From Terriglobales bacterium (GTDB lineage: Bacteria; Acidobacteriota; Terriglobia; Terriglobales; Acidobacteriaceae), in contig JBEPUJ010000014.1 of assembly GCA_041691575.1 (NCBI GenBank), positions 24,238 to 88,237 on the forward strand: 64,000 nt of DNA. The letters run 5' to 3'. The notes beneath the pieces were generated by a model. The model was not told the DNA's origin. It saw only the letters and a list, made by a program, of their open reading frames with translations, and made no database searches. A program made the position numbers and the translations under genes. Shown piece after piece: positions 26,999 to 41,461 of the stretch. How positions within the stretch are numbered: position 1 is the stretch's first letter; every line of letters starts with the position of its first letter.

Positions 26999-27328
26999 GT
27001 AACTATCATCTTAACACTGAATTTCGATATTTCGATGAGAACCGCGCTTTTGGAGACGCGGGTCTTTTATATAACGATTGCATGCTGAACGTATGGGTGA
27101 GTGGAACTCAGGAAAAGCTGATTCCAGAGACTATGATGGACACCTTGCGTCAGGAAGACGGAATCTGCCGGCAACTTTGCCATGCATAGTATGGAAAGTT
27201 CACGGCAGGATGTTGAGAGTCATTTACCTATTTATTTAGAAGCTGAAATTGCGAGTGAATCCAGCCCAACTGCGCCTCAAGGAAGACCGGTTCGACCTGA
27301 ATTTCGACTTGGATCAAGAATCGAGGAT

Positions 27329-28966
27329 ATGTTGACCATTTCTGTTAGAGGAACGCTTCTGGCGATTGCCTTGATTGGCCAGGGGATTGCGATGGCCGCT
27401 GGTAAAGATGCTGAACCTACAGCCACGCCCATCAAACATGTCGTCGTGATCTTCGGCGAGAACATCTCGTTCGATCACTATTTCGGGACTTATCCCAATG
27501 CATTGAATTCAACGGGCGAACCCGCATTTCACGCAAAGCCGGATACGCCCACCATTAATGGATTGAACTCGACGCTGTTGGAACACAATCCGAATTTTCT
27601 GAATCGCGAGGCGAATGGGAAGGACGCGGTCAACCCCTTCCGGCTGTCGCGGGCGCAGGCGGCAACAGCGGATGAAAACCACGACTATACGGCGGAGCAG
27701 CGTGCCTTTCATGCAGGGCTGCTGGACTCGTTTCCGAAGTACACCGGGGTGTTGGGGTCGCCAAAGGTGAAGCAGCGGCTGGGTAACGAAAGTGCGGACG
27801 CCTCCGACCTGTACGCGCACCAGGCCAAGGGGCTGGTGATGGGCTATTTCGACGGCAATACCGTGACTGCGATGTGGAACTATGCGCAGCGGTACGCGCT
27901 GAATGACAACTCGTACGGTTCGACGTTTGGGCCTTCGACGCCTGGGGCAATCGAGCTGATCTCGGGTCAGACCAACGGCATCAGCGACAAGGTGAACGCC
28001 GGAAACACGGTTATCGAGGGCGGCGATGGCACTTATACGATGATTGGAGACCCTGAGCCGATCGGCGATGTCTGTTCTCCGACTTCGGGAGCGCTGGCGA
28101 GCTTAGGCGGCAATAACATTGGGAAGATGCTCTCAAAGAGCAATGTGACGTGGGGATGGTTCGAGGGCGGGTTCGACCTGACGAAGACGAACCCCAATGG
28201 GACGACGGGATGCCTGCGCAGCACCTATTCGAAGATCGTCCGGCTGACGGTCCATGATTACAGCCCGCATCACCAGCCTTTCCAGTATTACGAGGAGACG
28301 GCAAACCCGAAGCATGTGCGGCCTACATCCATCAAGATGATTGGCCGCGACGGTGATGCGGCGAATCACCAGTACGACACGGACGATTTTTTTGACGCAG
28401 TAAAGGCCGGGAACTTTCCGGCAGTCAGCTTCCTTAAAGCTCCCTCGTATCAGGATGCCCATGCCGGGAACTCCAATCCGCTGGACGAGCAGACATTTGT
28501 TGTTCAGGTGATTAATTTTCTGCAGAAGCAGCCGGACTGGAAAAGCACTGCTGTCATTCTGGCGTATGACGACTCGGATGGCTGGTACGACCATCAGATG
28601 GGTCCCATCGTGAATCAATCGACGACGAAGGCTGATGCGCTGACCGGACCGGGAAAGTGCGGCGATGGCTCGACTGCATTGCCGGGGCCGAAGACTGCTC
28701 ATGCACAGGGGCGATGCGGTTATGGGCCGCGATTGCCGCTGCTGGTGATCTCCCCTTATGCGCGGCAAAACTTCGTGGACCACTCCTTGACCGACCAGAC
28801 TTCGGTGCTCCGATTTATCGAGGACAACTGGCTTGGCGGCGAGCGTGTGGGCGGCGGCTCCTTCGATGCCATCGCCGGGTCGATCAATGGGATGTTCGAC
28901 TTCAAGCATTCCAATTCGCGGCCTTACATCCTGAACGAGTCTACCGGGCTGGTGGCGAAGCAGTGA
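27329..28966 (+). CDS. Exported phosphoesterase (phospholipase C / AcpA acid phosphatase family)
   Basis: HVVVIFGENISFDHYFGTYP, YDDSDGWYDH, GPRLPLLVISPYA, DQTSVLRFIE; signal peptide after ATG 27329. Confidence 0.85.
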   Translation: MLTISVRGTLLAIALIGQGIAMAAGKDAEPTATPIKHVVVIFGENISFDHYFGTYPNALNSTGEPAFHAKPDTPTINGLNSTLLEHNPNFLNREANGKDAVNPFRLSRAQAATADENHDYTAEQRAFHAGLLDSFPKYTGVLGSPKVKQRLGNESADASDLYAHQAKGLVMGYFDGNTVTAMWNYAQRYALNDNSYGSTFGPSTPGAIELISGQTNGISDKVNAGNTVIEGGDGTYTMIGDPEPIGDVCSPTSGALASLGGNNIGKMLSKSNVTWGWFEGGFDLTKTNPNGTTGCLRSTYSKIVRLTVHDYSPHHQPFQYYEETANPKHVRPTSIKMIGRDGDAANHQYDTDDFFDAVKAGNFPAVSFLKAPSYQDAHAGNSNPLDEQTFVVQVINFLQKQPDWKSTAVILAYDDSDGWYDHQMGPIVNQSTTKADALTGPGKCGDGSTALPGPKTAHAQGRCGYGPRLPLLVISPYARQNFVDHSLTDQTSVLRFIEDNWLGGERVGGGSFDAIAGSINGMFDFKHSNSRPYILNESTGLVAKQ

Positions 28967-29000
28967 TCGGGTACGCAGAGAGAGCGAACCTGAAAAAGGA

Positions 29001-30623
29001 GTGTATTTGATTACTCGGAGGAGTTTTCTGGGACAGGCCGGAGTGTTTGCGACCGGTCTGCTGTTGACGGAGGCGGCGGCTGCCCATGGGATGGGGCATG
29101 AGGCGGCTGCTCCGAGTTCGGAGGTGATCGGCGCTGGTACGCTGACGCCTTTTGTCGATGAGCTTCCGCTTCCGCCGATAGCGAAGCGTGCGGGAACGCG
29201 GGCGAACCCGGAGCGCAGCGGCGAGCAGATTCCGTATTACAGGGTGGCGATGCGCGAGATGCGGATGAAGGTGCATCGCGATCTGCCTCCTACGCGCGTG
29301 TGGGGGTTCGATAACAGCTCGCCGGGGCCGATCTTTGAGACCAGAAGCGGAGAGGCGCTGCTGGTGGAGTGGGCCAATGAGCTTCCGCTGAAACATTTTT
29401 TGCCGATTGACTACACGCTGCATGGAGCGGAGAAAGATGTTCCGGAGGTGCGGAGCGTGGTCCATCTGCATGGCGGCAGGACTCCGCCGGAGAGCGACGG
29501 CTATCCCGAGGACTGGTATGTGCCGGGTAAATCGGCGGTCAATTTTTATCCGAACCGGCAGGATGCGACGACGCTGTTCTATCACGACCATGCGATGGGG
29601 ATTAATCGGCTGAACGTCTATGCCGGACTGCAGGGGATGTTCGTGATTCGCGATGCGGTGGAAGATGCGCTGAATCTTCCGCGAGGCAAGTATGAAGTGC
29701 CGCTGCTGATCTGCGACCGCTTTCTGCGCAAGGACGGGCAACTGGAGTATCCGGTCTCCGCCATACCCGGCAAGCCGTGGGTGCCAGAGGTCTTCGGCAA
29801 CGTGGTGATGGTGAATGGGAAGGTGACGCCTTATTTCGAAGTCGAGCCGAGGAAGTACCGGTTTCGCATCGTGAATGGATCGAATGGAAGGTTCTACCGG
29901 CTCTCGTTCGGCGATGGGCATGAGTTCCATATGATCGGCTCGGACCAGGGATTACTTGAGAGCCCGGCCCCGCTGAAGCGGGTGCAACTGAGCCCGGCAG
30001 AACGCGCCGATGTGATCGTCGATTTCAGCAAGTATGCGGGCCAGCAGGTTCTGCTGAGCAGCGATTCGCTGCAGATCATGCAGTTTCGCGTAGCGTCGCA
30101 AGGCGCCCCGGATACGAGCGCGCTGCCGAAACAACTGCGCGCGGTGGAGCGGATCAAGGAGTCCGATGCCGTGAAGAAGCGGCTGCTGACGCTCGACGAA
30201 CATCTGAACCTTGCCGACCAGTCGATGGACATGATGCTGAACAATACTCCGTGGCATATGCCGGTGACGGAGAATCCTGTCATCGATACGACGGAGATCT
30301 GGGAACTGGTGAATCTGACGGAGGACACTCATCCCATTCACCTTCATCTGGTGCGGTTTCAGATTCTGGATCGGCAGCGCATCGATACCAATGCCTTTTT
30401 CGATGACAGGACGGTGGACTTTACCGGTGAGGTTGAACTGCCTGCGGCGCATGAGGCCGGATGGAAGGATACGGTGCGCGTCGAGTCGGGAACGATGACG
30501 CGGATCATTGTTCCGTTCCGGGGTTTTACCGGCCGCTATGTGTGGCATTGCCATATGCTGGAGCACGAAGACAACGAGATGATGCGGCCGTATGAGGTCG
30601 TTGCCGCCCCGAACGAAGCTTGA
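29001..30623 (+). CDS. Tat-exported multicopper oxidase (CotA/bilirubin oxidase-like)
   Basis: TRRSFL Tat motif; HLH, YHDH, HPIHLH, HCHMLEHEDNEMM copper motifs. Confidence 0.92.
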   Translation: MYLITRRSFLGQAGVFATGLLLTEAAAAHGMGHEAAAPSSEVIGAGTLTPFVDELPLPPIAKRAGTRANPERSGEQIPYYRVAMREMRMKVHRDLPPTRVWGFDNSSPGPIFETRSGEALLVEWANELPLKHFLPIDYTLHGAEKDVPEVRSVVHLHGGRTPPESDGYPEDWYVPGKSAVNFYPNRQDATTLFYHDHAMGINRLNVYAGLQGMFVIRDAVEDALNLPRGKYEVPLLICDRFLRKDGQLEYPVSAIPGKPWVPEVFGNVVMVNGKVTPYFEVEPRKYRFRIVNGSNGRFYRLSFGDGHEFHMIGSDQGLLESPAPLKRVQLSPAERADVIVDFSKYAGQQVLLSSDSLQIMQFRVASQGAPDTSALPKQLRAVERIKESDAVKKRLLTLDEHLNLADQSMDMMLNNTPWHMPVTENPVIDTTEIWELVNLTEDTHPIHLHLVRFQILDRQRIDTNAFFDDRTVDFTGEVELPAAHEAGWKDTVRVESGTMTRIIVPFRGFTGRYVWHCHMLEHEDNEMMRPYEVVAAPNEA

Positions 30624-30953
30624 AGCGGAATCGACATTTCTGCCCCGCCTTGCTTCCATTATTTTTGCCATCGTCTTCCATTCATAAATTTTTAAAAGAA
30701 CAAGTAGGATGCTTATGCCTCTTGTCATAGGCGTGCAGCGGTTCTCTAGGAGATGATCCATGCAGAGGCGCAAACAGAGGTCGCCGATACATAATTTGGA
30801 AGGTCTTGACCGATATTCGATGGATGTTTGCTTCGCCTGTTTCTCCTGGAGTATGGTGGTTTTCGACAAGCTTTAAATGACTTCAACCGGCCGACTACGA
30901 TGAGGTACTACTCGTTTTGGGCATTCAGTAAGGAATGAGAGGTCAAGGCGCGC

Positions 30954-32048
30954 GTGGGTCGCAGAGCATCACAAATCGCTTGTTTGATCGTTAGTTGCCT
31001 GCTGTGGATGGCGTGTCCCGCGTTTGGGGCGTTAGCCGGGGGCGCTTCCTCTTCTGCGCGACCTGGAACCGGAGCTCATTCGCCGGAGTATCTCTCCCAG
31101 GGCTCAACCAGCATCTTCGACCCAGCCGCGACACCGTCGCATTGGATCTTCACGCTCTCGATGTTCGTGCTGGTCATCACGCTGGCGATTTTTTTGATCG
31201 TCGCGGGGCTGCTGATCTATGCGCTCATCCGCTATCGGCATCGCAACCTGGAGACGTACAACGAACCGGCGCAGATCTACGGGAGCAACCAGATTGAGCT
31301 TGCCTGGACGGTAATTCCCGCGCTGATCGTCGTCATGCTGTTCCTTACCTCGTCGCGAGTTATTCTTGCCACCGAGGATGCCAGGAAACCTGCGGATGCC
31401 GTCGATGTGGTGGTGGTCGGACATCAATTCTGGTGGGAATATCGCTATCCCAAGCTTGGCATCGTCACTGCAAACGAACTGCACATTCCGACCAGCGATC
31501 CTCAGCATCCAACGCCGACTTATCTCGAAATGTCGTCCGCGGACGTGGACCACAGCTTCTGGGTTCCGCGCCTTGCCGGAAAGATGGATCTCATCCCGAA
31601 TCGCGTGAACACGATGTGGATCGACCCTGAGACGCCTGGTCTCTATCTGGGGCAGTGCGCCCAATTTTGCGGCGTTCAGCATGCCAAGATGCTGCTGCGC
31701 GTCTATGCGGATACGCCTGCCGAATTTGCTGCATGGGCGGCAGAACAGAAGAAGCCCGCGGTAGAAGATCCGAGCGTTGCGGAAGGGCGTGAGGTATTTC
31801 TGCATAGCGCCTGCGTCAACTGCCACACCGTCTCCGGCACCATGGCGAATGGACGGTTCGGCCCCGACCTGACGCATTTGGCGAGCCGCGACACGATTGC
31901 CGCGGGCGCGGTTGAGAATAACGCAGACAACATGAAGAAATGGATCGATGCCCCGGCTTCTTTGAAGCCCGGCGCCTTGATGCCTCCCATGCATTTGAAC
32001 GAACACGATCTCAATGCGGTCACAGCGTACATGATGTCGCTTCACTAA
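30954..32048 (+). CDS. coxB: Cytochrome c oxidase subunit II with fused C-terminal cytochrome c (caa3 type)
   Basis: GHQFWW, DVDHSFW, CuA motif CAQFCGVQHAKM, CVNCH. Confidence 0.93.
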   Translation: MGRRASQIACLIVSCLLWMACPAFGALAGGASSSARPGTGAHSPEYLSQGSTSIFDPAATPSHWIFTLSMFVLVITLAIFLIVAGLLIYALIRYRHRNLETYNEPAQIYGSNQIELAWTVIPALIVVMLFLTSSRVILATEDARKPADAVDVVVVGHQFWWEYRYPKLGIVTANELHIPTSDPQHPTPTYLEMSSADVDHSFWVPRLAGKMDLIPNRVNTMWIDPETPGLYLGQCAQFCGVQHAKMLLRVYADTPAEFAAWAAEQKKPAVEDPSVAEGREVFLHSACVNCHTVSGTMANGRFGPDLTHLASRDTIAAGAVENNADNMKKWIDAPASLKPGALMPPMHLNEHDLNAVTAYMMSLH

Positions 32049-32114
32049 TCGGGAGATTCCTAGGCAGCCCGGATCGAGAATTTGCCGGCCAGATGGACTG
32101 AAGAAAGGGAAACG

Positions 32115-33812
32115 ATGGCTGATTCCGTATCGAGCCTTCCAGCACTGGAAGCGATCGACCCGACGGCGGAACAAAGTTCGCGGCGGTTATTCTTCGAGGT
32201 GCTGCACGACTGGGTGACGACGGTCGATCACAAAAAGATCGGCCTGATGTATATCGGCTACGCTCTGCTTTTTATGGTGGCGGGCGGCATAGAAGCGCTC
32301 ATCATGCGGATCCAGCTTGCGGTGCCGCATAACCACTTCGTCTCCCCCGAGGTCTTCAACCGGATGTTCACCATGCATGGGACCACGATGGTCTTCTTCA
32401 TGGGTATGCCCATCCTGTTTGGATTTGGAAACTACCTCATCCCCTTGATGATCGGCGCGCGCGACATGGCGTTTCCGCGCTTGAATGCGTTCAGCTTCTG
32501 GATCTCCGCGCTGGGCGGGCTGTTGCTGTATTACAGCTTCATCGGCGGATCAGGGCTTTATGGAGCGGGCAGCGCGCCGGATGTAGGCTGGTTCGCCTAT
32601 GCTCCGCTGACGGCCAAGGCCTTCTCGCCGGGACACAGCACGGACTACTGGACGATCAGCATTCTGCTAAGCGGGATCGGCAGCATCGGCACCGCGCTCA
32701 ATATCGTCGCTACGATTATTTCGATGCGCTGCCCGGGCATGAAGCTCAGCCGGATGCCGCTGCTGGCGTGGCTCTATTTAGTGCTGTCGAATATGGTCTT
32801 CATCACCGTCAGCCCGTTGACGGCGGCGCAGATCATGCTGATGCTCGATCGCTACGCTGGTTCGCATTTCTTTGATACGCAGGCTGGCGGCTCCGCTGTG
32901 CTCTGGATTCACTTCTTCTGGATCTTCGGACATCCTGAGGTCTATATCCTGGTGATGCCGGCGTTCGCGTTCATGAATGAGATCATTCCGGTCTTTTCGC
33001 GCAAGGCGATCTTCGGCTATCCGGCTATGGTGGCGGCATCGGTTGGCATCGGCTTCGTCAGTATGAGCGTCTGGGCTCACCACATGTTTACTGTCGGCAT
33101 GGGCGCGGGAGCTAATGTCTTCTTCGTCCTGTCGAGCATGGTCGTCGCGATACCGACCGGCATCAAGATCTTCAACTGGCTGGCCACGATATGGGGCGGC
33201 AAAGTGCGCTTTGCTTCTCCAATGTTGTTCAGCGTCGGCTTCCTGTTCCAGTTCCTGATTGCCGGACTCACCGGCATTATGCTTGCCGCCGCGCCGTTCG
33301 ACTGGCAACTGAACAACTCCTATTTTGTGGTCGCTCACTTCCATTACGTTCTGGTCGGCGGAATTCTCTTCGCCTTCTTCGCCGCATTCTATTACTGGTA
33401 CCCGAAGGTGACCGGCCGGATGATGAATGAGCGGCTCGCCAAATGGCACTTCTGGCTGATGGTGTTCGGGTTCCACATGACGTTCGACTTCATGCACATC
33501 CCTGGTTTGCTCGGGATGCCTCGCAGGGTCTACACCTACGAACCCCGGCCCGGATGGGAGATTCTGAACCTGATTGTGAGCATTGGCGCGATCTTCCAGG
33601 CCATTGCCGTCCTCCTGTTCGTGATCAACCTGATCCGGTCGAATTACAAGGGAGATATCGCAGGCAACGATCCCTGGGATGCGTGGACGCTCGAATGGTC
33701 TACCGCTTCGCCACCCCCGGTCTACAACTTTGCCTCCACCCCGGTTGTGTACAGCCGCCGCCCGCTGTGGGACATCAAGCATCCGGAAGACCCCGACTGG
33801 AACTACGAATGA
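32115..33812 (+). CDS. ctaD: Heme-copper oxidase subunit I, A1 type
   Basis: TMHG, ARDMAFPRLN, GHPEVY, WAHHM, PTGIK, AHFHY, GMPRR. Confidence 0.97.
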   Translation: MADSVSSLPALEAIDPTAEQSSRRLFFEVLHDWVTTVDHKKIGLMYIGYALLFMVAGGIEALIMRIQLAVPHNHFVSPEVFNRMFTMHGTTMVFFMGMPILFGFGNYLIPLMIGARDMAFPRLNAFSFWISALGGLLLYYSFIGGSGLYGAGSAPDVGWFAYAPLTAKAFSPGHSTDYWTISILLSGIGSIGTALNIVATIISMRCPGMKLSRMPLLAWLYLVLSNMVFITVSPLTAAQIMLMLDRYAGSHFFDTQAGGSAVLWIHFFWIFGHPEVYILVMPAFAFMNEIIPVFSRKAIFGYPAMVAASVGIGFVSMSVWAHHMFTVGMGAGANVFFVLSSMVVAIPTGIKIFNWLATIWGGKVRFASPMLFSVGFLFQFLIAGLTGIMLAAAPFDWQLNNSYFVVAHFHYVLVGGILFAFFAAFYYWYPKVTGRMMNERLAKWHFWLMVFGFHMTFDFMHIPGLLGMPRRVYTYEPRPGWEILNLIVSIGAIFQAIAVLLFVINLIRSNYKGDIAGNDPWDAWTLEWSTASPPPVYNFASTPVVYSRRPLWDIKHPEDPDWNYE

Positions 33813-33822
33813 GAGAGTATCG

Positions 33823-34419
33823 ATGAGCACGATTCCCATCACTCCCGATGTAGCCGAAGAGCCCTGGGTCCTGCCGGATCGAGGCACCGTCGGCATGGTC
33901 TGCCTGATCGTTGCCGAGTCCGCGATCTTCCTCATCTTCGTCGTCGCCTACATCTTTTACATGGGGCAGAGCCTGGGCGGGCCAACGCCGCAGCAGGTCC
34001 TCCAGTTGCCGATCTTCATCACGGTCTGCCTGTTGTCGAGCAGCCTGACGCTCCACTGGGCGGTCGCGGCGCTGCGTAAAAGCAAGATCGGGGCCTGCGC
34101 CGCGTGGCTTGCGGCTACCGTCGCGCTGGGCACTATCTTCCTCGTCGGAACGGGTATGGAGTGGCACCACCTTATCTATGTCGACGGTCTTTCGATTCGC
34201 ACCAATCTTTTTGGCACCACATTTTATTCGCTGATCGGTCTGCATGCGACCCATGTGGTCGTCGGTCTGGCGATGCTTTTGATGGCGCTCGTCTTTGCCC
34301 TGACCGGCCATGTGAAGGAAGAACATGCGCATCGTCTGGACGTGCTTGCGCTCTATTGGCACTTCGTTGATGCGGTGTGGGTTGTTGTATTCACGGTTGT
34401 CTATGTGCTCGGACGATGA
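33823..34419 (+). CDS. ctaE: Cytochrome c oxidase subunit III, short 5-TM form
   Basis: GMVCLIVAE, FGTTFYSLIGLHATHV, LYWHFVDAVW. Confidence 0.92.
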   Translation: MSTIPITPDVAEEPWVLPDRGTVGMVCLIVAESAIFLIFVVAYIFYMGQSLGGPTPQQVLQLPIFITVCLLSSSLTLHWAVAALRKSKIGACAAWLAATVALGTIFLVGTGMEWHHLIYVDGLSIRTNLFGTTFYSLIGLHATHVVVGLAMLLMALVFALTGHVKEEHAHRLDVLALYWHFVDAVWVVVFTVVYVLGR

Positions 34420-34458
34420 GAGCTTTGCAAATTTTGAGGGATGCTCGAAAGGGATTCG

Positions 34459-35313
34459 ATGTCAGTCGCTGAATCAGAACACGGACAAGAGCGTACAGGC
34501 GTAGTGGTGTTGCCGACACCGACCGCGTGGCCGCTGGTGCTCTCGCTTGGCATTACGCTGCTGCTGGCGGGGCTGCTGACGCATTGGTTTATCAGCGTCC
34601 TCGGCCTGGCGTTGATGGTCCCGTCCTCGATTGGATGGTTTCGCCAGGTGCTGCCGCACGAGCAGCATGAGTCGGTGCCCGTTCGCATCAAGGTGGAGAC
34701 CATCACGACGCGGCGCATCAACGTGGTCAGAATTCCCCTCGACGAGAACCATCGAAAAGTTCTGCCCTACGAGACCTACACCATAATGGCCGGAGTCAAG
34801 GGCGGCCTCGTCGGCGGTATTGCGATGATCGTACCGGCGACGCTCTTTAGCCTCATTCGATATCACAGCCTCTGGTACTCCGCGAATTTGCTGGCTGCTG
34901 GCGGCTTTGTGGACTGGGCGAATGCGAGCGACGCCTTCCTGTCGAGCTTTCATATGGAGGGACTGCTCGCCGCAGCGGCCATCCATATCGTCACCTCGCT
35001 GCTGGTGGGGCTGCTTTATGGAGCCATGCTTCCGATGTTTCCCTGGAAGCCGATCTTGACCGCCGGCTTTGTCGCTCCGTTTCTCTGGACAGGAATTCTT
35101 TACAGCGCGCTGGGCGTCATCAGCCCGATTCTGGATCAGCGCATCGACTGGCTCTGGTTCATCGTCTCGCAGATTGCATTCGGCCTGGTCTGCGGCTTTG
35201 TCGTGAACCTGCAGGTAAGGGTGCGAACCGCGCAATTCCGCTCGTTGCCATTTACCGTTCGCGCGGGAATCGAAGGTGCCCACAAGAAGGGCGAGAACGA
35301 GGAGGACGAATAG
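34459..35313 (+). CDS. Membrane protein: CtaF/subunit IV-like N-terminus fused to an extra multi-TM domain
   Basis: PTPTAWPLVLSLG...GWFRQVL resembles COX3 helices I-II; five to six further hydrophobic segments. Confidence 0.55.
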   Translation: MSVAESEHGQERTGVVVLPTPTAWPLVLSLGITLLLAGLLTHWFISVLGLALMVPSSIGWFRQVLPHEQHESVPVRIKVETITTRRINVVRIPLDENHRKVLPYETYTIMAGVKGGLVGGIAMIVPATLFSLIRYHSLWYSANLLAAGGFVDWANASDAFLSSFHMEGLLAAAAIHIVTSLLVGLLYGAMLPMFPWKPILTAGFVAPFLWTGILYSALGVISPILDQRIDWLWFIVSQIAFGLVCGFVVNLQVRVRTAQFRSLPFTVRAGIEGAHKKGENEEDE

Positions 35314-36080
35314 TGAGAATGTCCTCCGTCCTCTCTCTCCTTGCTGCCTCTCTTTTGTGTGCGGCGACCTTTGGCTGTAACAGCGCGCCGGGACGTCCCA
35401 AGGCTGGCCCCGAAGTTTTGCGTCCCGACGAGGTGCAGGATTTCGCCACGCTCTACAAACAGAATTGCGCTGCCTGCCACGGAGAAAATGGCAGGCAGGG
35501 TGCAGCCGCCTCTCTGGCCAATCCTGAATATCTGGCATTGGCAGGAGAAAATTCGCTGCTCCAGGTTACGTCGTTAGGCGTGCCCGGCACGCTGATGCCC
35601 GCGTTTGCGCAGAGCGCGGGAGGCATGCTCACCGACCGCCAGATCCATAGCCTGGTAGACGGCATGATGAAGCAGTGGGGAAAGGCTGACGCTCTGGCCG
35701 GACAGAATCCTCCGCCATACGCAGCGGCAACCGCAGGAGACGCCCAACAGGGGCAGCAGGTCTTCGCAACGTATTGCGCCCGCTGCCATGGCGCCGACGG
35801 CAAGGGCGCGACGGCCAGAGATGCAGGCGCAAAGACTGAGCGCAAACTTGGGTCGATCGTCGATCCTTCCTATCTCGCGCTGGTCAGCAACCAGAGTTTA
35901 CGAACGATGACGATTGTCGGCATTCCGGATGAAGGGATGCCGGACTGGCGCGGAGATCTTCTCTCGCACCCCATGACCGACAAGGAAGTTACGGATGTAG
36001 TGGCATGGCTGGCCTCCCAGCGGTCGCCTTATCCCGGCCAACCTTACCCCACAGCGCCTGCAGCCCAGCGCCCGCACTAA
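35313..36080 (+). CDS. Diheme cytochrome c lipoprotein (QcrC-like)
   Basis: Lipobox TFGC; CAACH and CARCH; distal Met candidates (LMPAF, GMPDW). Confidence 0.88.
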   Translation: MRMSSVLSLLAASLLCAATFGCNSAPGRPKAGPEVLRPDEVQDFATLYKQNCAACHGENGRQGAAASLANPEYLALAGENSLLQVTSLGVPGTLMPAFAQSAGGMLTDRQIHSLVDGMMKQWGKADALAGQNPPPYAAATAGDAQQGQQVFATYCARCHGADGKGATARDAGAKTERKLGSIVDPSYLALVSNQSLRTMTIVGIPDEGMPDWRGDLLSHPMTDKEVTDVVAWLASQRSPYPGQPYPTAPAAQRPH

Positions 36081-36100
36081 CCGGCAAGACGGAGACACTG

Positions 36101-36760
36101 ATGAGCGAACACGAGAGCGAGCACCTGACCGGCGATCCGAGACCGGAAGAAAATAAATTGCAGAGTGAGGCACGGCCTGTATCCAACTCTAAGAATGATC
36201 CTAAAGACCATTCCCGTCGTGTCTTCCTGTTCAAGGTCTCTTTGTTGATCAATGGGGCGGTGGGCGTGGTGCTTGCCGTTCCCGTTCTCGGATATCTGCT
36301 GGGGCCGGTGATCCAGAAGAAGAATGGCTACCACTCCTGGATCACGCTGGGCAACGTGAACGATTTTCCGGAAGGCGAGACGCGGCTGGCCAACTATCGT
36401 AATCCATCCACCACGCAGTGGGACGGCCAGACGGGCGACATTCCGTGCTGGGTTCGCCGCGTATCGGGCAATCAGTTTCAGGTCTTCGCCATCAATTGCG
36501 CCCACCTCGGCTGTCCGGTCCGATGGTTCTCTGAGTCGAAGCTCTTCCTCTGCCCCTGCCATGGCGGCGCGTACTACGAAGATGGCGAGCGCGCTGCAGG
36601 GCCGCCCGAGCGTGGTCTCTTCGAATACAAGTACAGGGTCGCGGGAGCCAAGCTGATGATCAATGCTGGTGAGATGCCGACGCTCTCAACCCCGGCCAGC
36701 TCGCCGAGCGCCAACTTTGTACCACTGGAAAAAATAGGGTGTGGATCATGCAAGAGCTAA
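36101..36760 (+). CDS. qcrA: Rieske iron-sulfur subunit of a bc complex
   Basis: SRRVFL Tat motif, TM anchor, CAHLGC and CPCHGGAY. Confidence 0.92.
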   Translation: MSEHESEHLTGDPRPEENKLQSEARPVSNSKNDPKDHSRRVFLFKVSLLINGAVGVVLAVPVLGYLLGPVIQKKNGYHSWITLGNVNDFPEGETRLANYRNPSTTQWDGQTGDIPCWVRRVSGNQFQVFAINCAHLGCPVRWFSESKLFLCPCHGGAYYEDGERAAGPPERGLFEYKYRVAGAKLMINAGEMPTLSTPASSPSANFVPLEKIGCGSCKS

Positions 36761-38316
36761 AGAAGTCCGGTCTGCGAAAACTCGGCATGGGAGTGTACGA
36801 CTGGTTCGAGTATCGTCTCGGCCTCGGCAAACCGGCGATGGACGCGGCGGCGCATCCCGTTCCGGCCAGCAGCGCAAGCTGGTGGTATGTTTTTGGCAGC
36901 GCCGCGACGGTGCTGTTCGCATTGCAGATCATGACCGGCGTTCTGCTTGCGCTGGTTTACACACCGTCCGCAAGTGAGGCGTGGAACAGCCTCCAGTTCC
37001 TCAACGACAAGGTTGCGCTGGGCTGGTTCCTGCGCGCATTGCATGGATGGGGCTCGGACTTCATGGTCGCCATCGTGCTCATCCACATGATGCAGGTCTT
37101 CATGTTCGGTGCGTACAAGTTTCCCCGCGAACTGACCTGGATTATCGGAGTGTTTCTTCTGCTCCTGACCCTGGGCATGGCCTTCACCGGACAGGTGCTG
37201 CGCTTCGATCAGGACGCCTACTGGGGCCTCGGCATCGGCGCTTCGATTGCGAGCCGCGTGCCTCTTATTGGCGCGCCTCTGGTTCATCTGATGCTCGGCG
37301 CACCCATCATTGGCAGCGCTACGCTCTCACGCTTCTTTACCCTTCATGTCTTTGTTATCCCCGGCATCCTGCTGGCTGGTATCGCGCTTCATCTTTTGAT
37401 GGTGCTACGGCTTGGAATCAATGAGTGGCCCATGCCCGGGCGCGTCGTTCGCAAGAGCACCTACGAGGCGGAGTATCACAAGCTCACCGAAAAAGAGGGC
37501 ATTGCCTTTGTGCCCGATGGCGCATGGAAGGATGCCATCTTCGCCGCCGCCATTGTGCTGGCGGTAATGGCATGCGCCTTCTTCTTCGGCCCGTTCGGCC
37601 CCACCGGCCAGCCCGATCCTACGATCATCCAGACAGCGCCGAAGCCGGACCCTGCGTTCCTCTGGATCTTCGCCGTGCTCTCCCTTCTGCCGGCCAGCCT
37701 GGAGACGCCGATCATCCTGATCGCGCCCGTAATCATTATCGGAGCCATGCTGTTGCTGCCGCTGGTCGCGGGCGAAGGTGAAAAACACTGGGCCCGCCGT
37801 CCGCTCGCTGTGTTGATGGTCACGGTCATCGCGGTCTCTCTCGGCATCTTTACCCGGCTGGGAATCACCACTCCGTGGAGCCCGGTGATGAATGCGTGGT
37901 CCAGCGACATCATTCCTCCGAAACTCCTTCATGAAGCCACGCCGCTTGAACGGCAGGGCGCGCTCGTCTTCCAGAACAAGCAGTGCCGCAACTGCCACGA
38001 GGTTGCCGGGCAGGGCGGACAGAGAGGCCCCGATCTCGATTCTGTGGCGACACGCCTGACCGAAGACCAGATGGTGCGCCAGGTATTGCAGGGCGGCGGA
38101 AATATGCCCGCCTATGGCAATGCCCTCAGCCCGTCGCAGACCACGGCGCTGGTTGCCTTTCTCAAGACTCTGCGCGGCAATGACCTGAGACCCGCGCAGG
38201 ATGCCTCCCGCGCTCTCGGCAATATCAATCCTCCGGAATCAACCAGGCCCGGCGAGCAGATTCCTTCAGGTCAATCGCACCTGTCGAAGGAATCGCCTGC
38301 TTCGGGGAAGCCATAG
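36748..38316 (+). CDS. qcrB: Cytochrome b (b6 plus subunit IV fused) with C-terminal cytochrome c
   Basis: LHGW/LIHM and TLHV/ALHL heme pairs, DQDAYWG, CRNCH; start 36739 or 36748. Confidence 0.92.
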   Translation: MQELKKSGLRKLGMGVYDWFEYRLGLGKPAMDAAAHPVPASSASWWYVFGSAATVLFALQIMTGVLLALVYTPSASEAWNSLQFLNDKVALGWFLRALHGWGSDFMVAIVLIHMMQVFMFGAYKFPRELTWIIGVFLLLLTLGMAFTGQVLRFDQDAYWGLGIGASIASRVPLIGAPLVHLMLGAPIIGSATLSRFFTLHVFVIPGILLAGIALHLLMVLRLGINEWPMPGRVVRKSTYEAEYHKLTEKEGIAFVPDGAWKDAIFAAAIVLAVMACAFFFGPFGPTGQPDPTIIQTAPKPDPAFLWIFAVLSLLPASLETPIILIAPVIIIGAMLLLPLVAGEGEKHWARRPLAVLMVTVIAVSLGIFTRLGITTPWSPVMNAWSSDIIPPKLLHEATPLERQGALVFQNKQCRNCHEVAGQGGQRGPDLDSVATRLTEDQMVRQVLQGGGNMPAYGNALSPSQTTALVAFLKTLRGNDLRPAQDASRALGNINPPESTRPGEQIPSGQSHLSKESPASGKP

Positions 38317-38328
38317 AAATGCCGTTGT

Positions 38329-39177
38329 ATGGCCGCTGATATCCAATCAACCATCGCTTCGTGGCAGCCGTCTTACTGGCTCTCCGCTTCGGTGCTGCTC
38401 AGCTCGGCAGTGTACTGCCGGGGATGGCTGGCGATCCGAAAGACGAGGCCCGCGCAATTCCCCCTGTGGCGGCTGAATACCTTTCTGCTGGCCATGACGA
38501 TTTTGTGGCTGGCGATCGGCTCCCCGCTGGACGCATTTGCGGATGTGACGCTGTCCGCGCACATGGTCGAGCACCTGCTGCTCATGTCGGTTGTGCCGCC
38601 GCTGGTCTGGCTGTCCAATCCAACTGTCCCCATGCTGCGCGGACTGCCTCGCTGGCTGGTGAAGCGCGTGCTTGGCCCACTCATCCGCATCCGGCGGCTG
38701 CGGCAGTTCAGCCATTGGCTCATCCGCCCGCGCATCGCCTGGATCGTGCTGAACGTCATCTTTCTGGGATGGCATGTCCCTGCCGCCTATGACTTTGCCC
38801 TGACGTACGAAGGGTGGCACATCGTCGAGCACATGTGTTTTCTCTTTGCGTCTCTGCTCTTCTGGTGGCCGATCATTCGTCCATGGCCTACCGGCGGACG
38901 TGTCTATACCTGGGGGCTGATCCTGTATCTCCTCTCAGCGGACGTCGTCAACACCGCGCTCTCCGCGTTCCTCGCCTTCTGCACCCGGCCGATGTATCCG
39001 TTCTACCTGACGCAGCCGAATCCGTTTGGGCTTTCGCCGCTTGCCGATCAGGTGATCGGAGCGGTCATCATGTGGGTCTTCGGCTCTATCGTCTTCCTGA
39101 TTCCCGCCATCTTCATCACGCTCAGGCTGCTCCAGCCTGAGCAGCTTCGCGTCCCCGACAGGGAATATGGCGTCTGA
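38329..39177 (+). CDS. ctaG: caa3-type oxidase assembly factor CtaG
   Basis: SAHMVEHLLL, GWHVPAAYD, HIVEH, DQVIGAVIMW. Confidence 0.9.
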   Translation: MAADIQSTIASWQPSYWLSASVLLSSAVYCRGWLAIRKTRPAQFPLWRLNTFLLAMTILWLAIGSPLDAFADVTLSAHMVEHLLLMSVVPPLVWLSNPTVPMLRGLPRWLVKRVLGPLIRIRRLRQFSHWLIRPRIAWIVLNVIFLGWHVPAAYDFALTYEGWHIVEHMCFLFASLLFWWPIIRPWPTGGRVYTWGLILYLLSADVVNTALSAFLAFCTRPMYPFYLTQPNPFGLSPLADQVIGAVIMWVFGSIVFLIPAIFITLRLLQPEQLRVPDREYGV

Positions 39178-39199: not shown

Positions 39200-41209
39200 T
39201 CACGGTAATACTGTCAACGCGGCATTGCTCGATGTCTCCGGCTCAACTTCATCGAAGTGCTTGCGGATTCGCTTTGCCGTCGCCGCATTCACCACTGCGG
39301 TCAACGCATCCGGCCCTGCCTGCCGAATGCCTCGTATGCTGCCGAAGTGCTCGATCAGGCGCTGTCGCGTCCTTGGTCCCACGCCCGGAATCTCCAGCAA
39401 CTCGCTGTCGCGGTCGCGCATCTGCCGCCGTTTGCGGTGATAGGTCACCGCGAAGCGATGGCTCTCGTCGCGAATCTTCTGCATCAGGTGGAGCACGGGA
39501 GAGCGGCGGTCCAGCACCACCGGCTCATTCTCCTGCCCATAGACGTAGATGATCTCTTCCCGCTTGGCAATCGAGGCGAGCGGTTGCAGCGTGACGCCAA
39601 TCTCTTCCAGCGCCGCATACGCTGCATGAAGCTGGCCGAGGCCGCCATCGATGAGGATGAGCGAAGGGAACGGTTTCTTGTCATCCTGTAGCCGCTTGTA
39701 GCGCCGCTGAATTACCTCGCGCATGCTGGCAAAGTCGTCGACTCCGCTCACAGTCTTCACCTGGAACTTGCGGTAGTCGGACTTCTTCATCGCCCCGTCT
39801 TCCCACACGACCATGGAAGCTACTGTCTCCGCGCCCTGGATGTGCGAGATGTCGAAGCACTCGATCCGTCGCGGCAACTCTTCCAGCGTCAGGGCATCCT
39901 GCAACGCCTCTTGAATCGCCTTCATCGCAGGTTGCAACACGCGGAACCGCTGGTCGTAGGACTGCTTCGCATTCTGGCACACCAGGTCCACGAGCGAGCG
40001 CTTCTCGCCTCGCTGCGGAACCAGAATTTCAACCCGCTTGCCGGTGCGTTCCGAGAGCATCTCCGCCAGCACCGCACGGTCGGGAAACTCCACTGGCACC
40101 AGAACGGATCGCGGTACATAGCTCTGGTCGAGGTAGAGCTGTTTGAGAAACGCCGCGAAGAACACCGATGGGCTGAATCGAGCGCCGGGCTCTGAGACCG
40201 CCGTATGCTGCACGACCTCGCTGCCCTCGCCAACGTTGCCCTCGCCAATCTCGGGAGCCGTCACCGCAGGATCAGGCTCTATCCGGGGGGAAGCTTCGAC
40301 TTCGTCCTTTTCGCCGGTGTGCTCATTCAGCGTCTCCGACAAAAACTCCGGCAGGTCCTCCCAGAAGAAATCGCGGCGATCGACGATCTTGCCATGACGC
40401 ATATGGAAGAGGTTCACCGCGATCATCTCGTTCTCGTAGTGATAGCCGAAGACGTCCGCATCCTCGTTATCGGTCGTGGCGATCCTCTGCTTGTCGTGCA
40501 TCTGGTGGACGGTCACGATCTGGTCGCGCAGCCGCCCGGCCAGCTCAAACTGTTCTGCCTCGGCGGCCTCCTCCATGCGCCGGGTCAGCGAATGCTCCAA
40601 CTCAGTCGTTCGCCCTTCGAGAAAGAGTTGCACATCGCGAATGGTCTCTTTGTAGATCTCAGGAGTCGTCAAGCCTTCGACGCATGGCCCCAGGCATCGC
40701 TTGATGTAGTACTGCAAACACGCCCGCGGATGATAGCGCGACAGATCGACCTTGCAGCTTGGAATAAGAAAGCTGCGATGGATTAAATCCACCAGCCGGT
40801 ACGCCAGATTGCCGGGAAAGTACGGCCCAAAGTAGGCCGCGCCATCCTTCCTGAGCCGCCGTGTCACAAACACCTTCGGATAGCGGTCGTTCATCGTCAG
40901 CTTGATATACGGATAGGTCTTGTCGTCGCGCAGCAGGATATTGAATCGCGGCTTCTTCTGCTTGATGAGGTTGTTCTCGAGCGCCAGCGCCTCATGCTCA
41001 TTGGCGACCGTGATGTACTCCACATCGACCGCCTCGCGCATCAGCGATCCGGTCTTTGCGTTCGCCTGCGATGCCTCCAGGAAATACGACCGCACGCGCG
41101 CGCGCAGGTTCTTCGCCTTGCCGACGTAGATCACCTCGCCCTCGGCGTTTTTGTAGAGGTAACAACCCGGCTGCGTGGGGATGGTTCGAATTTTCTGGTG
41201 AAGGTCCAT
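39200..41209 (-). CDS. uvrC: Excinuclease ABC subunit C
   Basis: GCYLY..YVGKAKNLRARVRSYF, ECFDISH, IDGGLGQ, RDESHRFA, HhH. Confidence 0.97.
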   Translation of the reverse strand: MDLHQKIRTIPTQPGCYLYKNAEGEVIYVGKAKNLRARVRSYFLEASQANAKTGSLMREAVDVEYITVANEHEALALENNLIKQKKPRFNILLRDDKTYPYIKLTMNDRYPKVFVTRRLRKDGAAYFGPYFPGNLAYRLVDLIHRSFLIPSCKVDLSRYHPRACLQYYIKRCLGPCVEGLTTPEIYKETIRDVQLFLEGRTTELEHSLTRRMEEAAEAEQFELAGRLRDQIVTVHQMHDKQRIATTDNEDADVFGYHYENEMIAVNLFHMRHGKIVDRRDFFWEDLPEFLSETLNEHTGEKDEVEASPRIEPDPAVTAPEIGEGNVGEGSEVVQHTAVSEPGARFSPSVFFAAFLKQLYLDQSYVPRSVLVPVEFPDRAVLAEMLSERTGKRVEILVPQRGEKRSLVDLVCQNAKQSYDQRFRVLQPAMKAIQEALQDALTLEELPRRIECFDISHIQGAETVASMVVWEDGAMKKSDYRKFQVKTVSGVDDFASMREVIQRRYKRLQDDKKPFPSLILIDGGLGQLHAAYAALEEIGVTLQPLASIAKREEIIYVYGQENEPVVLDRRSPVLHLMQKIRDESHRFAVTYHRKRRQMRDRDSELLEIPGVGPRTRQRLIEHFGSIRGIRQAGPDALTAVVNAATAKRIRKHFDEVEPETSSNAALTVLP

Positions 41210-41461
41210 GCTGCAATTCAACCCTGGAGTTTCAGTGTAGCCGGATACAGTTCGTGCGGCTTTCGCACCGAATCGACTGGGTAGATTTGACGCATCTTTG
41301 AATCAAAAGTTCCCGATTTACCAAACTTCGTTAAAAGCCGCCTTCATCGCTTCTATTCCATATGACTGAAAAATAATGGTTTATATCGTGGAGCGTTTGG
41401 CAGATGGATTGCACTCGTATCTGCGTTGAAGATTGTCACAAACAAACAGGAGATGAAACCA

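Follow-up and report, generated by a model that had tools for sequence, protein, structure and literature searches.

A bc complex and caa3 oxidase operon in a Terriglobales bacterium, and a subunit that may join the two complexes

Introduction

Members of the Acidobacteriaceae rank with the most abundant bacteria in soil, and one of the principal ways in which they pass electrons to oxygen is encoded by an operon that combines genes for a caa3-type oxidase with genes for a quinol-oxidising bc complex. A copy of this operon lies at positions 30954-39177 (plus strand) of a 64,000-nucleotide stretch of the Terriglobales bacterium assembly GCA_041691575.1 (contig JBEPUJ010000014.1, positions 24,238 to 88,237), the whole of which we refer to as the window, and it poses the question whether the two complexes form one physical unit or work side by side. 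The original prediction, made from the letters of the window, had taken the operon to be self-contained and to encode a candidate obligate supercomplex of complexes III and IV. Should the bc complex and the caa3 oxidase prove to form a stable supercomplex with four tethered haems, this would represent a new type of structure and a rewarding target for cryo-electron microscopy, and it would show how diderm bacteria manage without a soluble cytochrome c.

Both the gene-level description and the supercomplex hypothesis are already in the literature for this family. Trojan et al. (2021, mSystems, PMC8407424) reported that the A1 caa3 genes of Acidobacteriaceae are always in an operon upstream of bc1 genes, the 'bc1-A1 caa3 superoperon', and proposed a respiratory supercomplex that bypasses soluble carriers. 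For strain KBS 83 their Data Set S1 lists ctaC, ctaD, ctaE, 'ctaF-like', petC, petA, petB and an assembly factor (ctaG), and in their Data Set S2 all eight genes are transcribed, at ∼100-400 transcripts per million (PMC8407424). The operon described here shares with that superoperon the same eight genes, their order and strand arrangement, the A1-type oxidase and the Acidobacteriaceae host; there is no structural difference, the operon being a further copy in a different genome. Trojan et al. leave aside the fusions seen in Planctomycetota, the splitting of subunit III and the four haems, and what is new beyond the published account is the hairpin and glycine-rich domain of the fourth gene product (orf4), a gene fusion in Pirellulales, the gene order across distant loci, and the co-occurrence of orf4 with cytochrome b.

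Results and Discussion

Eight genes for a quinol-to-oxygen branch

The open reading frame list of the window shows eight close-packed reading frames at 30954-39177, all on the plus strand, and we consider it very probable that they are one operon of the bc1-A1 caa3 superoperon type encoding a complete quinol-to-oxygen branch. These genes, followed by the two neighbouring features, are:

30954..32048, +, coxB/ctaC, oxidase subunit II with the CuA site CAQFCGVQHAKM and a fused class I cytochrome c (Pfam/NCBIfam)
32082..33812, +, coxA/ctaD, A1-type haem-copper oxidase subunit I (PF00115, TIGR02891, GHPEV motif)
33823..34419, +, coxC/ctaE, short subunit III of 198 aa with five helices (partial COX3 match, refined start)
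34441..35313, +, orf4 ('ctaF-like'), 290-aa membrane protein (profile comparison, AlphaFold2 (AF2) model)
35313..36080, +, dihaem class I cytochrome c, 255 aa, probable lipoprotein (two class I cytochrome c domains)
36101..36760, +, Rieske [2Fe-2S] subunit (PF00355, refined start)
36739..38316, +, cytochrome b with C-terminal class I cytochrome c, 525 aa (Cytochrome_B plus cytochrome c domain)
38329..39177, +, Caa3_CtaG-family oxidase assembly factor, last gene of the operon (PF09678, 191 bits)
30624..30953, +, leader of 330 nt upstream of coxB, between the multicopper oxidase stop (30623) and the coxB start; putative promoter region
39200-41221, -, uvrC, convergent, the next gene downstream (open reading frame list)

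With the refined starts of coxC (33823) and the Rieske gene (36101), the intergenic distances in gene order are 33, 10, 21, -1, 20, -22 and 12 nt, the negative values including a 1-nt overlap between the start of the dihaem cytochrome c gene and the stop of orf4. The original prediction had described these eight genes with short gaps or overlaps, and reading frames, families, motifs and spacing agree with it in every detail checked.

The first three genes specify the core of the oxidase. CoxB combines COX2_TM, COX2 and Cytochrom_C domains and scores 172 bits with TIGR02866 (cut-off 147.7); its cytochrome c part matches PF00034 at residues 275-363, with CVNCH at residue 287. In the CuA loop CAQFCGVQHAKM a glutamine replaces the canonical subunit II glutamate that also binds the Mg/Mn ion. 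CoxA matches COX1 (PF00115) with 518 bits and TIGR02891 with 699 bits (cut-off 670.75), and its translation contains FGHPEVYILV, in which GHPEV, with the helix VI glutamate, marks the A1 type; the real start of this gene is likely the ATG at 32115. CoxC is not a canonical seven-helix subunit III in one polypeptide, covering positions 78-257 of the 258 in the COX3 model (PF00510), i.e. without helices 1-2. The other COX3 paralogues of this genome are likewise not canonical seven-helix forms.

The quinol-oxidising genes are b6-like in several respects. A twin-arginine motif (SRRVFL), a single membrane anchor and the boxes CAHLGC and CPCHGGAY characterise the Rieske protein, whose nearest solved relatives are b6f-type Rieske proteins, and CPCHGG[AVT]Y is found in 78/78 of its relatives. 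In the scheme used by Kao and Hunte (2014, PMC4122944) the Rieske potential is predicted from the residues two and four places after CxCH, and the combination G-Y is mid-minus (∼200 mV) and goes with menaquinol; by this G-Y signature the protein is predicted to be of mid-to-low potential. In cytochrome b the b6 and subunit IV parts are fused into one polypeptide with seven hydrophobic helices, and the C-terminal cytochrome c domain (CRNCH at residue 416) should therefore lie in the periplasm. The gene could instead start at the ATG at 36748. The histidines of the protein are spaced H-x13-H and H-x14-H, the latter spacing following from an alignment to solved cytochrome b6 that scores 161 bits and is gap-free through helix D, and the haem-ci cysteine is replaced by valine (YVFG vs YCLG of b6). 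The Rieske box, the b6-like 14-residue histidine spacing and the absence of the haem-ci cysteine, all named in the original prediction, are upheld by the sequence and by the b6 alignment.

The Qo motif of cytochrome b reads PDPA (window positions 37645-37659). In 80 relatives it mostly keeps Pro-Asp at positions 1-2, with positions 3-4 varying (PDFA, PDFF, PDFP, PDFY, PDLP, PDPP, PDVP), and the loss of Trp-Tyr is therefore a family trait rather than a peculiarity of this genome. Kao and Hunte (2014, PMC4122944) defined a 'PDWY-cyt c clade' of cytochromes b from Acidobacteria, Planctomycetes and other groups, whose members end in a fused class I cytochrome c and are coupled to Rieske proteins of low or mid-minus potential; they suggested horizontal spread for this clade. 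The protein described here resembles it in having a class I cytochrome c at the C-terminus and a Qo motif that begins with Pro-Asp, but has PA (and its relatives PD plus variable residues) where that clade has WY at positions 3-4. Because the G-Y Rieske signature and the Pro-Asp Qo start are both linked in the literature to menaquinol users, we infer that the quinol is menaquinol.

Four CxxCH sites are present in the operon, CVNCH in CoxB, CAACH and CARCH in the dihaem cytochrome c and CRNCH in cytochrome b, and all are on membrane-anchored subunits, confirming the four tethered haems that had been predicted. The signal peptide of the dihaem cytochrome c ends in TFGC, an atypical lipobox, and the lipobox cysteine after the signal peptide is kept in 39/40 relatives, the exception appearing to be truncated or frame-shifted. 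The similarity of this protein to actinobacterial QcrC is weak but specific (NF050122, E = 2.2e-11, below the cut-off), and QcrC chains in the Protein Data Bank (PDB) also match it. The 1 + 2 + 1 haem pattern, YVFG at the haem-ci position and the H-x14-H spacing are all conserved in relatives.

In the mechanism that we propose, a b6-like quinol:cytochrome c oxidoreductase would consist of the Tat-exported Rieske protein, the seven-helix cytochrome b with its periplasmic c-haem domain, and the dihaem cytochrome c lipoprotein as third component. Its partner would be an A1-type caa3 oxidase whose subunit III is split between the five-helix CoxC and the N-terminal hairpin of orf4, with the CtaG-type factor serving oxidase assembly. 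Electrons would most likely pass from menaquinol to the Rieske cluster, the c-haem of cytochrome b, the haem pair of the lipoprotein, the c-haem of CoxB, CuA, haem a and haem a3-CuB, and finally to O2, the order of the c-haems being inferred, and every carrier on this path would be membrane-anchored.

orf4 and a probable split of subunit III

The product of orf4 belongs to a family of more than 4300 homologues (1181 clusters at 50% identity), and it has two parts. With Cyt_c_ox_IV (CtaF, PF12270) it scores 17 bits over residues 28-67, below the cut-off of 26.9, the match being limited to positions 84-123 of the 132 in the model, and the best orf4 relative reaches 26.8 bits; PF12270 is matched at E <= 1 by 15/27 family members (best 8e-6), and the part matched is the last two CtaF helices. 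A profile of the 27 members aligns to residues 4-65 of solved COX3 chains (E = 1.9e-4), and in this search of solved structures the 15 best of 16 matches are COX3. With moderate confidence we read residues ∼12-69 of orf4 as a hairpin that corresponds to the first two helices of subunit III, which are missing from the short CoxC. There is a precedent in M. smegmatis, where CtaE and CtaF together form subunit III, CtaF giving helices 1-2, and the pair is the main contact to complex III (Brzezinski et al., PMC8361435).

The hairpin is followed at residues ∼115-257 by four Gly-rich helices in an AF2 model built from the alignment (pLDDT 83.8); a model from the single sequence reached a pLDDT of 52 and was not used. 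No conserved metal or haem ligand was seen in this four-helix domain. Weak matches to DUF1440 and DUF6789 in a few family members serve as leads only.

In many Pirellulales orf4 and the dihaem cytochrome c are a single polypeptide of ∼525 aa, which retains a hydrophobic segment and a lipobox between the two parts and so suits the required topology. In such fusions (P0238 and P0274; L096:8001-9596) the internal hydrophobic stretch ends in the lipobox LFAGC or LAGC; cleavage and lipidation may still take place there, or the stretch may act as a seventh helix. Some other Pirellulales (P0364, at L097:8001-9317) have an orf4 homologue of ∼438 aa in which the Gly-rich four-helix domain is tandemly duplicated, which hints that the domain acts as a pair. 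In three genomes of another family of the phylum (G100, G336 and G353) only the N-terminal hairpin of orf4 is matched (∼65 aa, e.g. G353:C6:729587-729781), adjoining a cytochrome b-c orthologue of 42-46% identity and with an in-frame stop codon within the matches. These may be either a hairpin-only variant or a decayed gene.

Conservation and distribution

With orf4 as the anchor for collecting relatives' loci, gene order is colinear in 80/80 Acidobacteriaceae loci as far as the contig reached, 68 of these having all eight genes. Edaphobacter and Acidobacteriales genomes supply the nearest homologues of orf4, at 81-86% identity, which fits an Acidobacteriaceae host. The same gene order is kept in six distant loci, in which orf4 is 32-41% identical, and three of these are from Planctomycetota (Pirellulales, Phycisphaerales). 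The synteny search that the original prediction called for has therefore been run, and the genes are not scattered among relatives.

The operon is far from universal in the phylum. An orf4 match was found in 18/401 genomes of an even sample of the phylum, among them 7/14 of the same genus. Among 34 genomes scored for an orthologous cytochrome b-c (at least 56% identity), it was present in 15/15 with a full-length orf4 and in 0/19 without any orf4 match. Judged by this distribution, the eight genes behave as one accessory module that is gained or lost as a unit.

Comparison with known III-IV systems

The actinobacterial bcc-aa3 supercomplex of M. smegmatis and C. glutamicum (PMC8361435) shares with the present operon a dihaem cytochrome c, a menaquinol-type Rieske/cytochrome b pair and a split subunit III. 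The split is of the same kind in both, a five-helix CtaE/CoxC being completed by a hairpin from a second protein, and in actinobacteria the pair is the III-IV interface (PMC8361435). There are also clear differences. Unlike its actinobacterial counterpart, the cytochrome b described here is b6-like and has its own c domain. Another such domain is fused to oxidase subunit II, which brings the c-haems to four vs two in actinobacteria. The hairpin protein is extended by a four-helix domain, and the dihaem cytochrome c is a lipoprotein. Small cytochromes c are present in this genome, whereas actinobacteria are without them (PMC8361435). The actinobacterial NF0501xx models (QcrA, QcrB, QcrC, CtaC, CtaD, CtaE) score 26-619 bits against the operon, all below cut-offs of 190-880.

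A second comparison is with the Firmicute b6c complex (QcrABC) and caa3 oxidase of Bacillus. In both systems the haem spacing is b6-like, the subunit IV helices are followed by a c domain, subunit III of the caa3 oxidase has five helices, and there are c-type cytochromes that are lipoproteins as well as a Caa3_CtaG factor. A III-IV supercomplex has been isolated from Bacillus PS3 (PMC8361435). The operon described here differs from the Bacillus system in that b6 and subunit IV are one polypeptide, the haem-ci cysteine is absent, and there are an extra dihaem cytochrome c and orf4; the conserved ligand cysteine and the separate b6 and subunit IV likewise set apart the cytochromes b6 with haem ci of the b6f and Firmicute types.

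One complex or two

We favour a physically coupled III-IV arrangement because of the strict gene order, the gain and loss of the genes as a unit, and the Pirellulales fusion of orf4 with the dihaem cytochrome c. The last of these, in which an oxidase-type hairpin is joined to a cytochrome usually assigned to complex III, is in our view the best new argument for coupling. On the evidence of these gene patterns and of the actinobacterial analogy, the chances that a stable III-IV supercomplex is formed seem to us about even. If it is, orf4 would most likely be the interface subunit, as CtaE/CtaF are in mycobacteria. A bolder proposal, possible but doubtful, is that the orf4 family is the bridging subunit of a third type of III-IV supercomplex beside bcc-aa3 and ACIII-aa3; its hairpin would sit in the caa3 oxidase and its four-helix domain would keep the dihaem cytochrome c and cytochrome b in place, making a four-c-haem menaquinol:O2 wire, without a diffusible carrier, in Acidobacteriota and Planctomycetota.

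A number of observations weigh against coupling or against the gene assignments behind it. The assignment of the orf4 hairpin to COX3 has modest statistics (the E = 1.9e-4 given above), the Pfam COX3 model itself does not match orf4, and a Foldseek comparison of orf4 with the PDB gave no significant match (best E = 0.26) and none for the C-terminal domain. In the 330-nt leader upstream of coxB no sigma-70 consensus was found, and an uninformative promoter and terminator scan gave 0 promoters vs 3.5 expected and 9 terminator-like sites vs 7.7 expected, the latter all within genes and all but one on the coding strand. The original prediction had been unable to say whether such a complex had been characterised in this lineage; the operon and the supercomplex idea have indeed been published, but our literature search found no published purification or structure of an acidobacterial or planctomycete bc-caa3 complex, nor biochemistry in any lineage. 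Elsewhere in the genome, small monohaem cytochrome c candidates with a signal peptide or a lipoprotein leader number at least five, one of them a 114-aa lipoprotein, and there are also an ACIII-Sco-caa3 cluster and two further A-type oxidase gene sets. Since alternative complex III, other caa3-type oxidases and small cytochromes c exist, electrons could enter or leave by diffusible or other carriers.

These genomic data bear most directly on how strictly coupling is to be understood. An obligate and self-contained supercomplex like the actinobacterial bcc-aa3, in which the bc complex has no other electron outlet, could appeal to the anchoring of all four c-haems, to the actinobacteria-like split of subunit III and to the fact that the operon holds the only Rieske/cytochrome b complex of the genome. 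It is nonetheless quite improbable, given the small cytochromes c and further cytochrome c oxidases, which contrast with the lack of such cytochromes in actinobacteria, the location elsewhere of the haem A synthesis and Sco genes, and the presence of the operon in only half of the same-genus genomes, as expected of an accessory branch. Neither 'obligate' nor 'self-contained' can therefore be kept from the original prediction, the former in view of the ACIII-Sco-caa3 cluster, the two further A-type oxidase sets and the small monohaem cytochromes c, the latter in view of ctaA, ctaB and three Sco genes, which lie on other contigs. The reported lack of ctaA, ctaB, sco and a free cytochrome c gene is correct for 30954-39177, where none of the four is present, but does not extend to the genome, where ctaA, ctaB, sco and candidate small cytochromes c are found. 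What stands of the predicted menaquinol-to-O2 wire is the quinol-to-O2 gene set, the anchored c-haems and the menaquinol-type signatures; what does not is the obligate, self-contained supercomplex.

A serious alternative, whose probability we put somewhat short of even, is that the operon encodes two separate, co-expressed complexes between which electrons pass by collision of the tethered c domains or via a small cytochrome c, orf4 then doing nothing more than completing subunit III. The genome offers such small cytochromes, the 114-aa lipoprotein among them, and its other cytochrome c oxidases need a donor; moreover, III-IV association is facultative in most Gram-negative bacteria (PMC8361435), and gene clustering alone does not prove contact. 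It is harder to reconcile with two independent complexes that the eight-gene order is kept across two phyla, that orf4 and the orthologous bc complex co-occur or are both absent, and that the oxidase-type hairpin protein is covalently joined to the dihaem cytochrome c in Pirellulales. The same fusion could be turned to another use, since the partner of the dihaem cytochrome c is the oxidase-type orf4 and not a bc subunit: the dihaem protein might belong to the oxidase, held there by orf4 as an entry port for several periplasmic donors, with the c domain of cytochrome b as the true c1 equivalent. The 1-nt overlap of its start with the orf4 stop would suit this arrangement, as would the c domain that cytochrome b already has, as in Bacillus QcrC. 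Its specific similarity to actinobacterial QcrC, its annotation as petC by Trojan et al. (PMC8407424), and the finding that no other donor gene is conserved beside the operon nevertheless make assignment to the oxidase unlikely.

Other respiratory genes and the ends of the operon

The ACIII-Sco-caa3 cluster lies at a contig edge (C2:36-8856) and comprises NrfD-like (ActC end), ActD, dihaem c, an unassigned membrane protein, Sco, and caa3 subunits II, I and III with a COX4_pro subunit IV, a second superoperon with the layout that Trojan et al. give for ACIII-A2 caa3. Two weaker COX1 homologues are also present in the genome.

Directly upstream of the operon (27182-30623) are genes for a phospholipase C-like phosphoesterase and a multicopper oxidase with a Tat signal. 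A functional link to either was considered and rejected, as neither adjoins the operon in any of 80 relatives. The same is true more generally of the flanking genes (phosphoesterase, multicopper oxidase, uvrC, OmpA-like), which are not conserved with the operon, and the conserved unit therefore ends exactly at coxB and ctaG.

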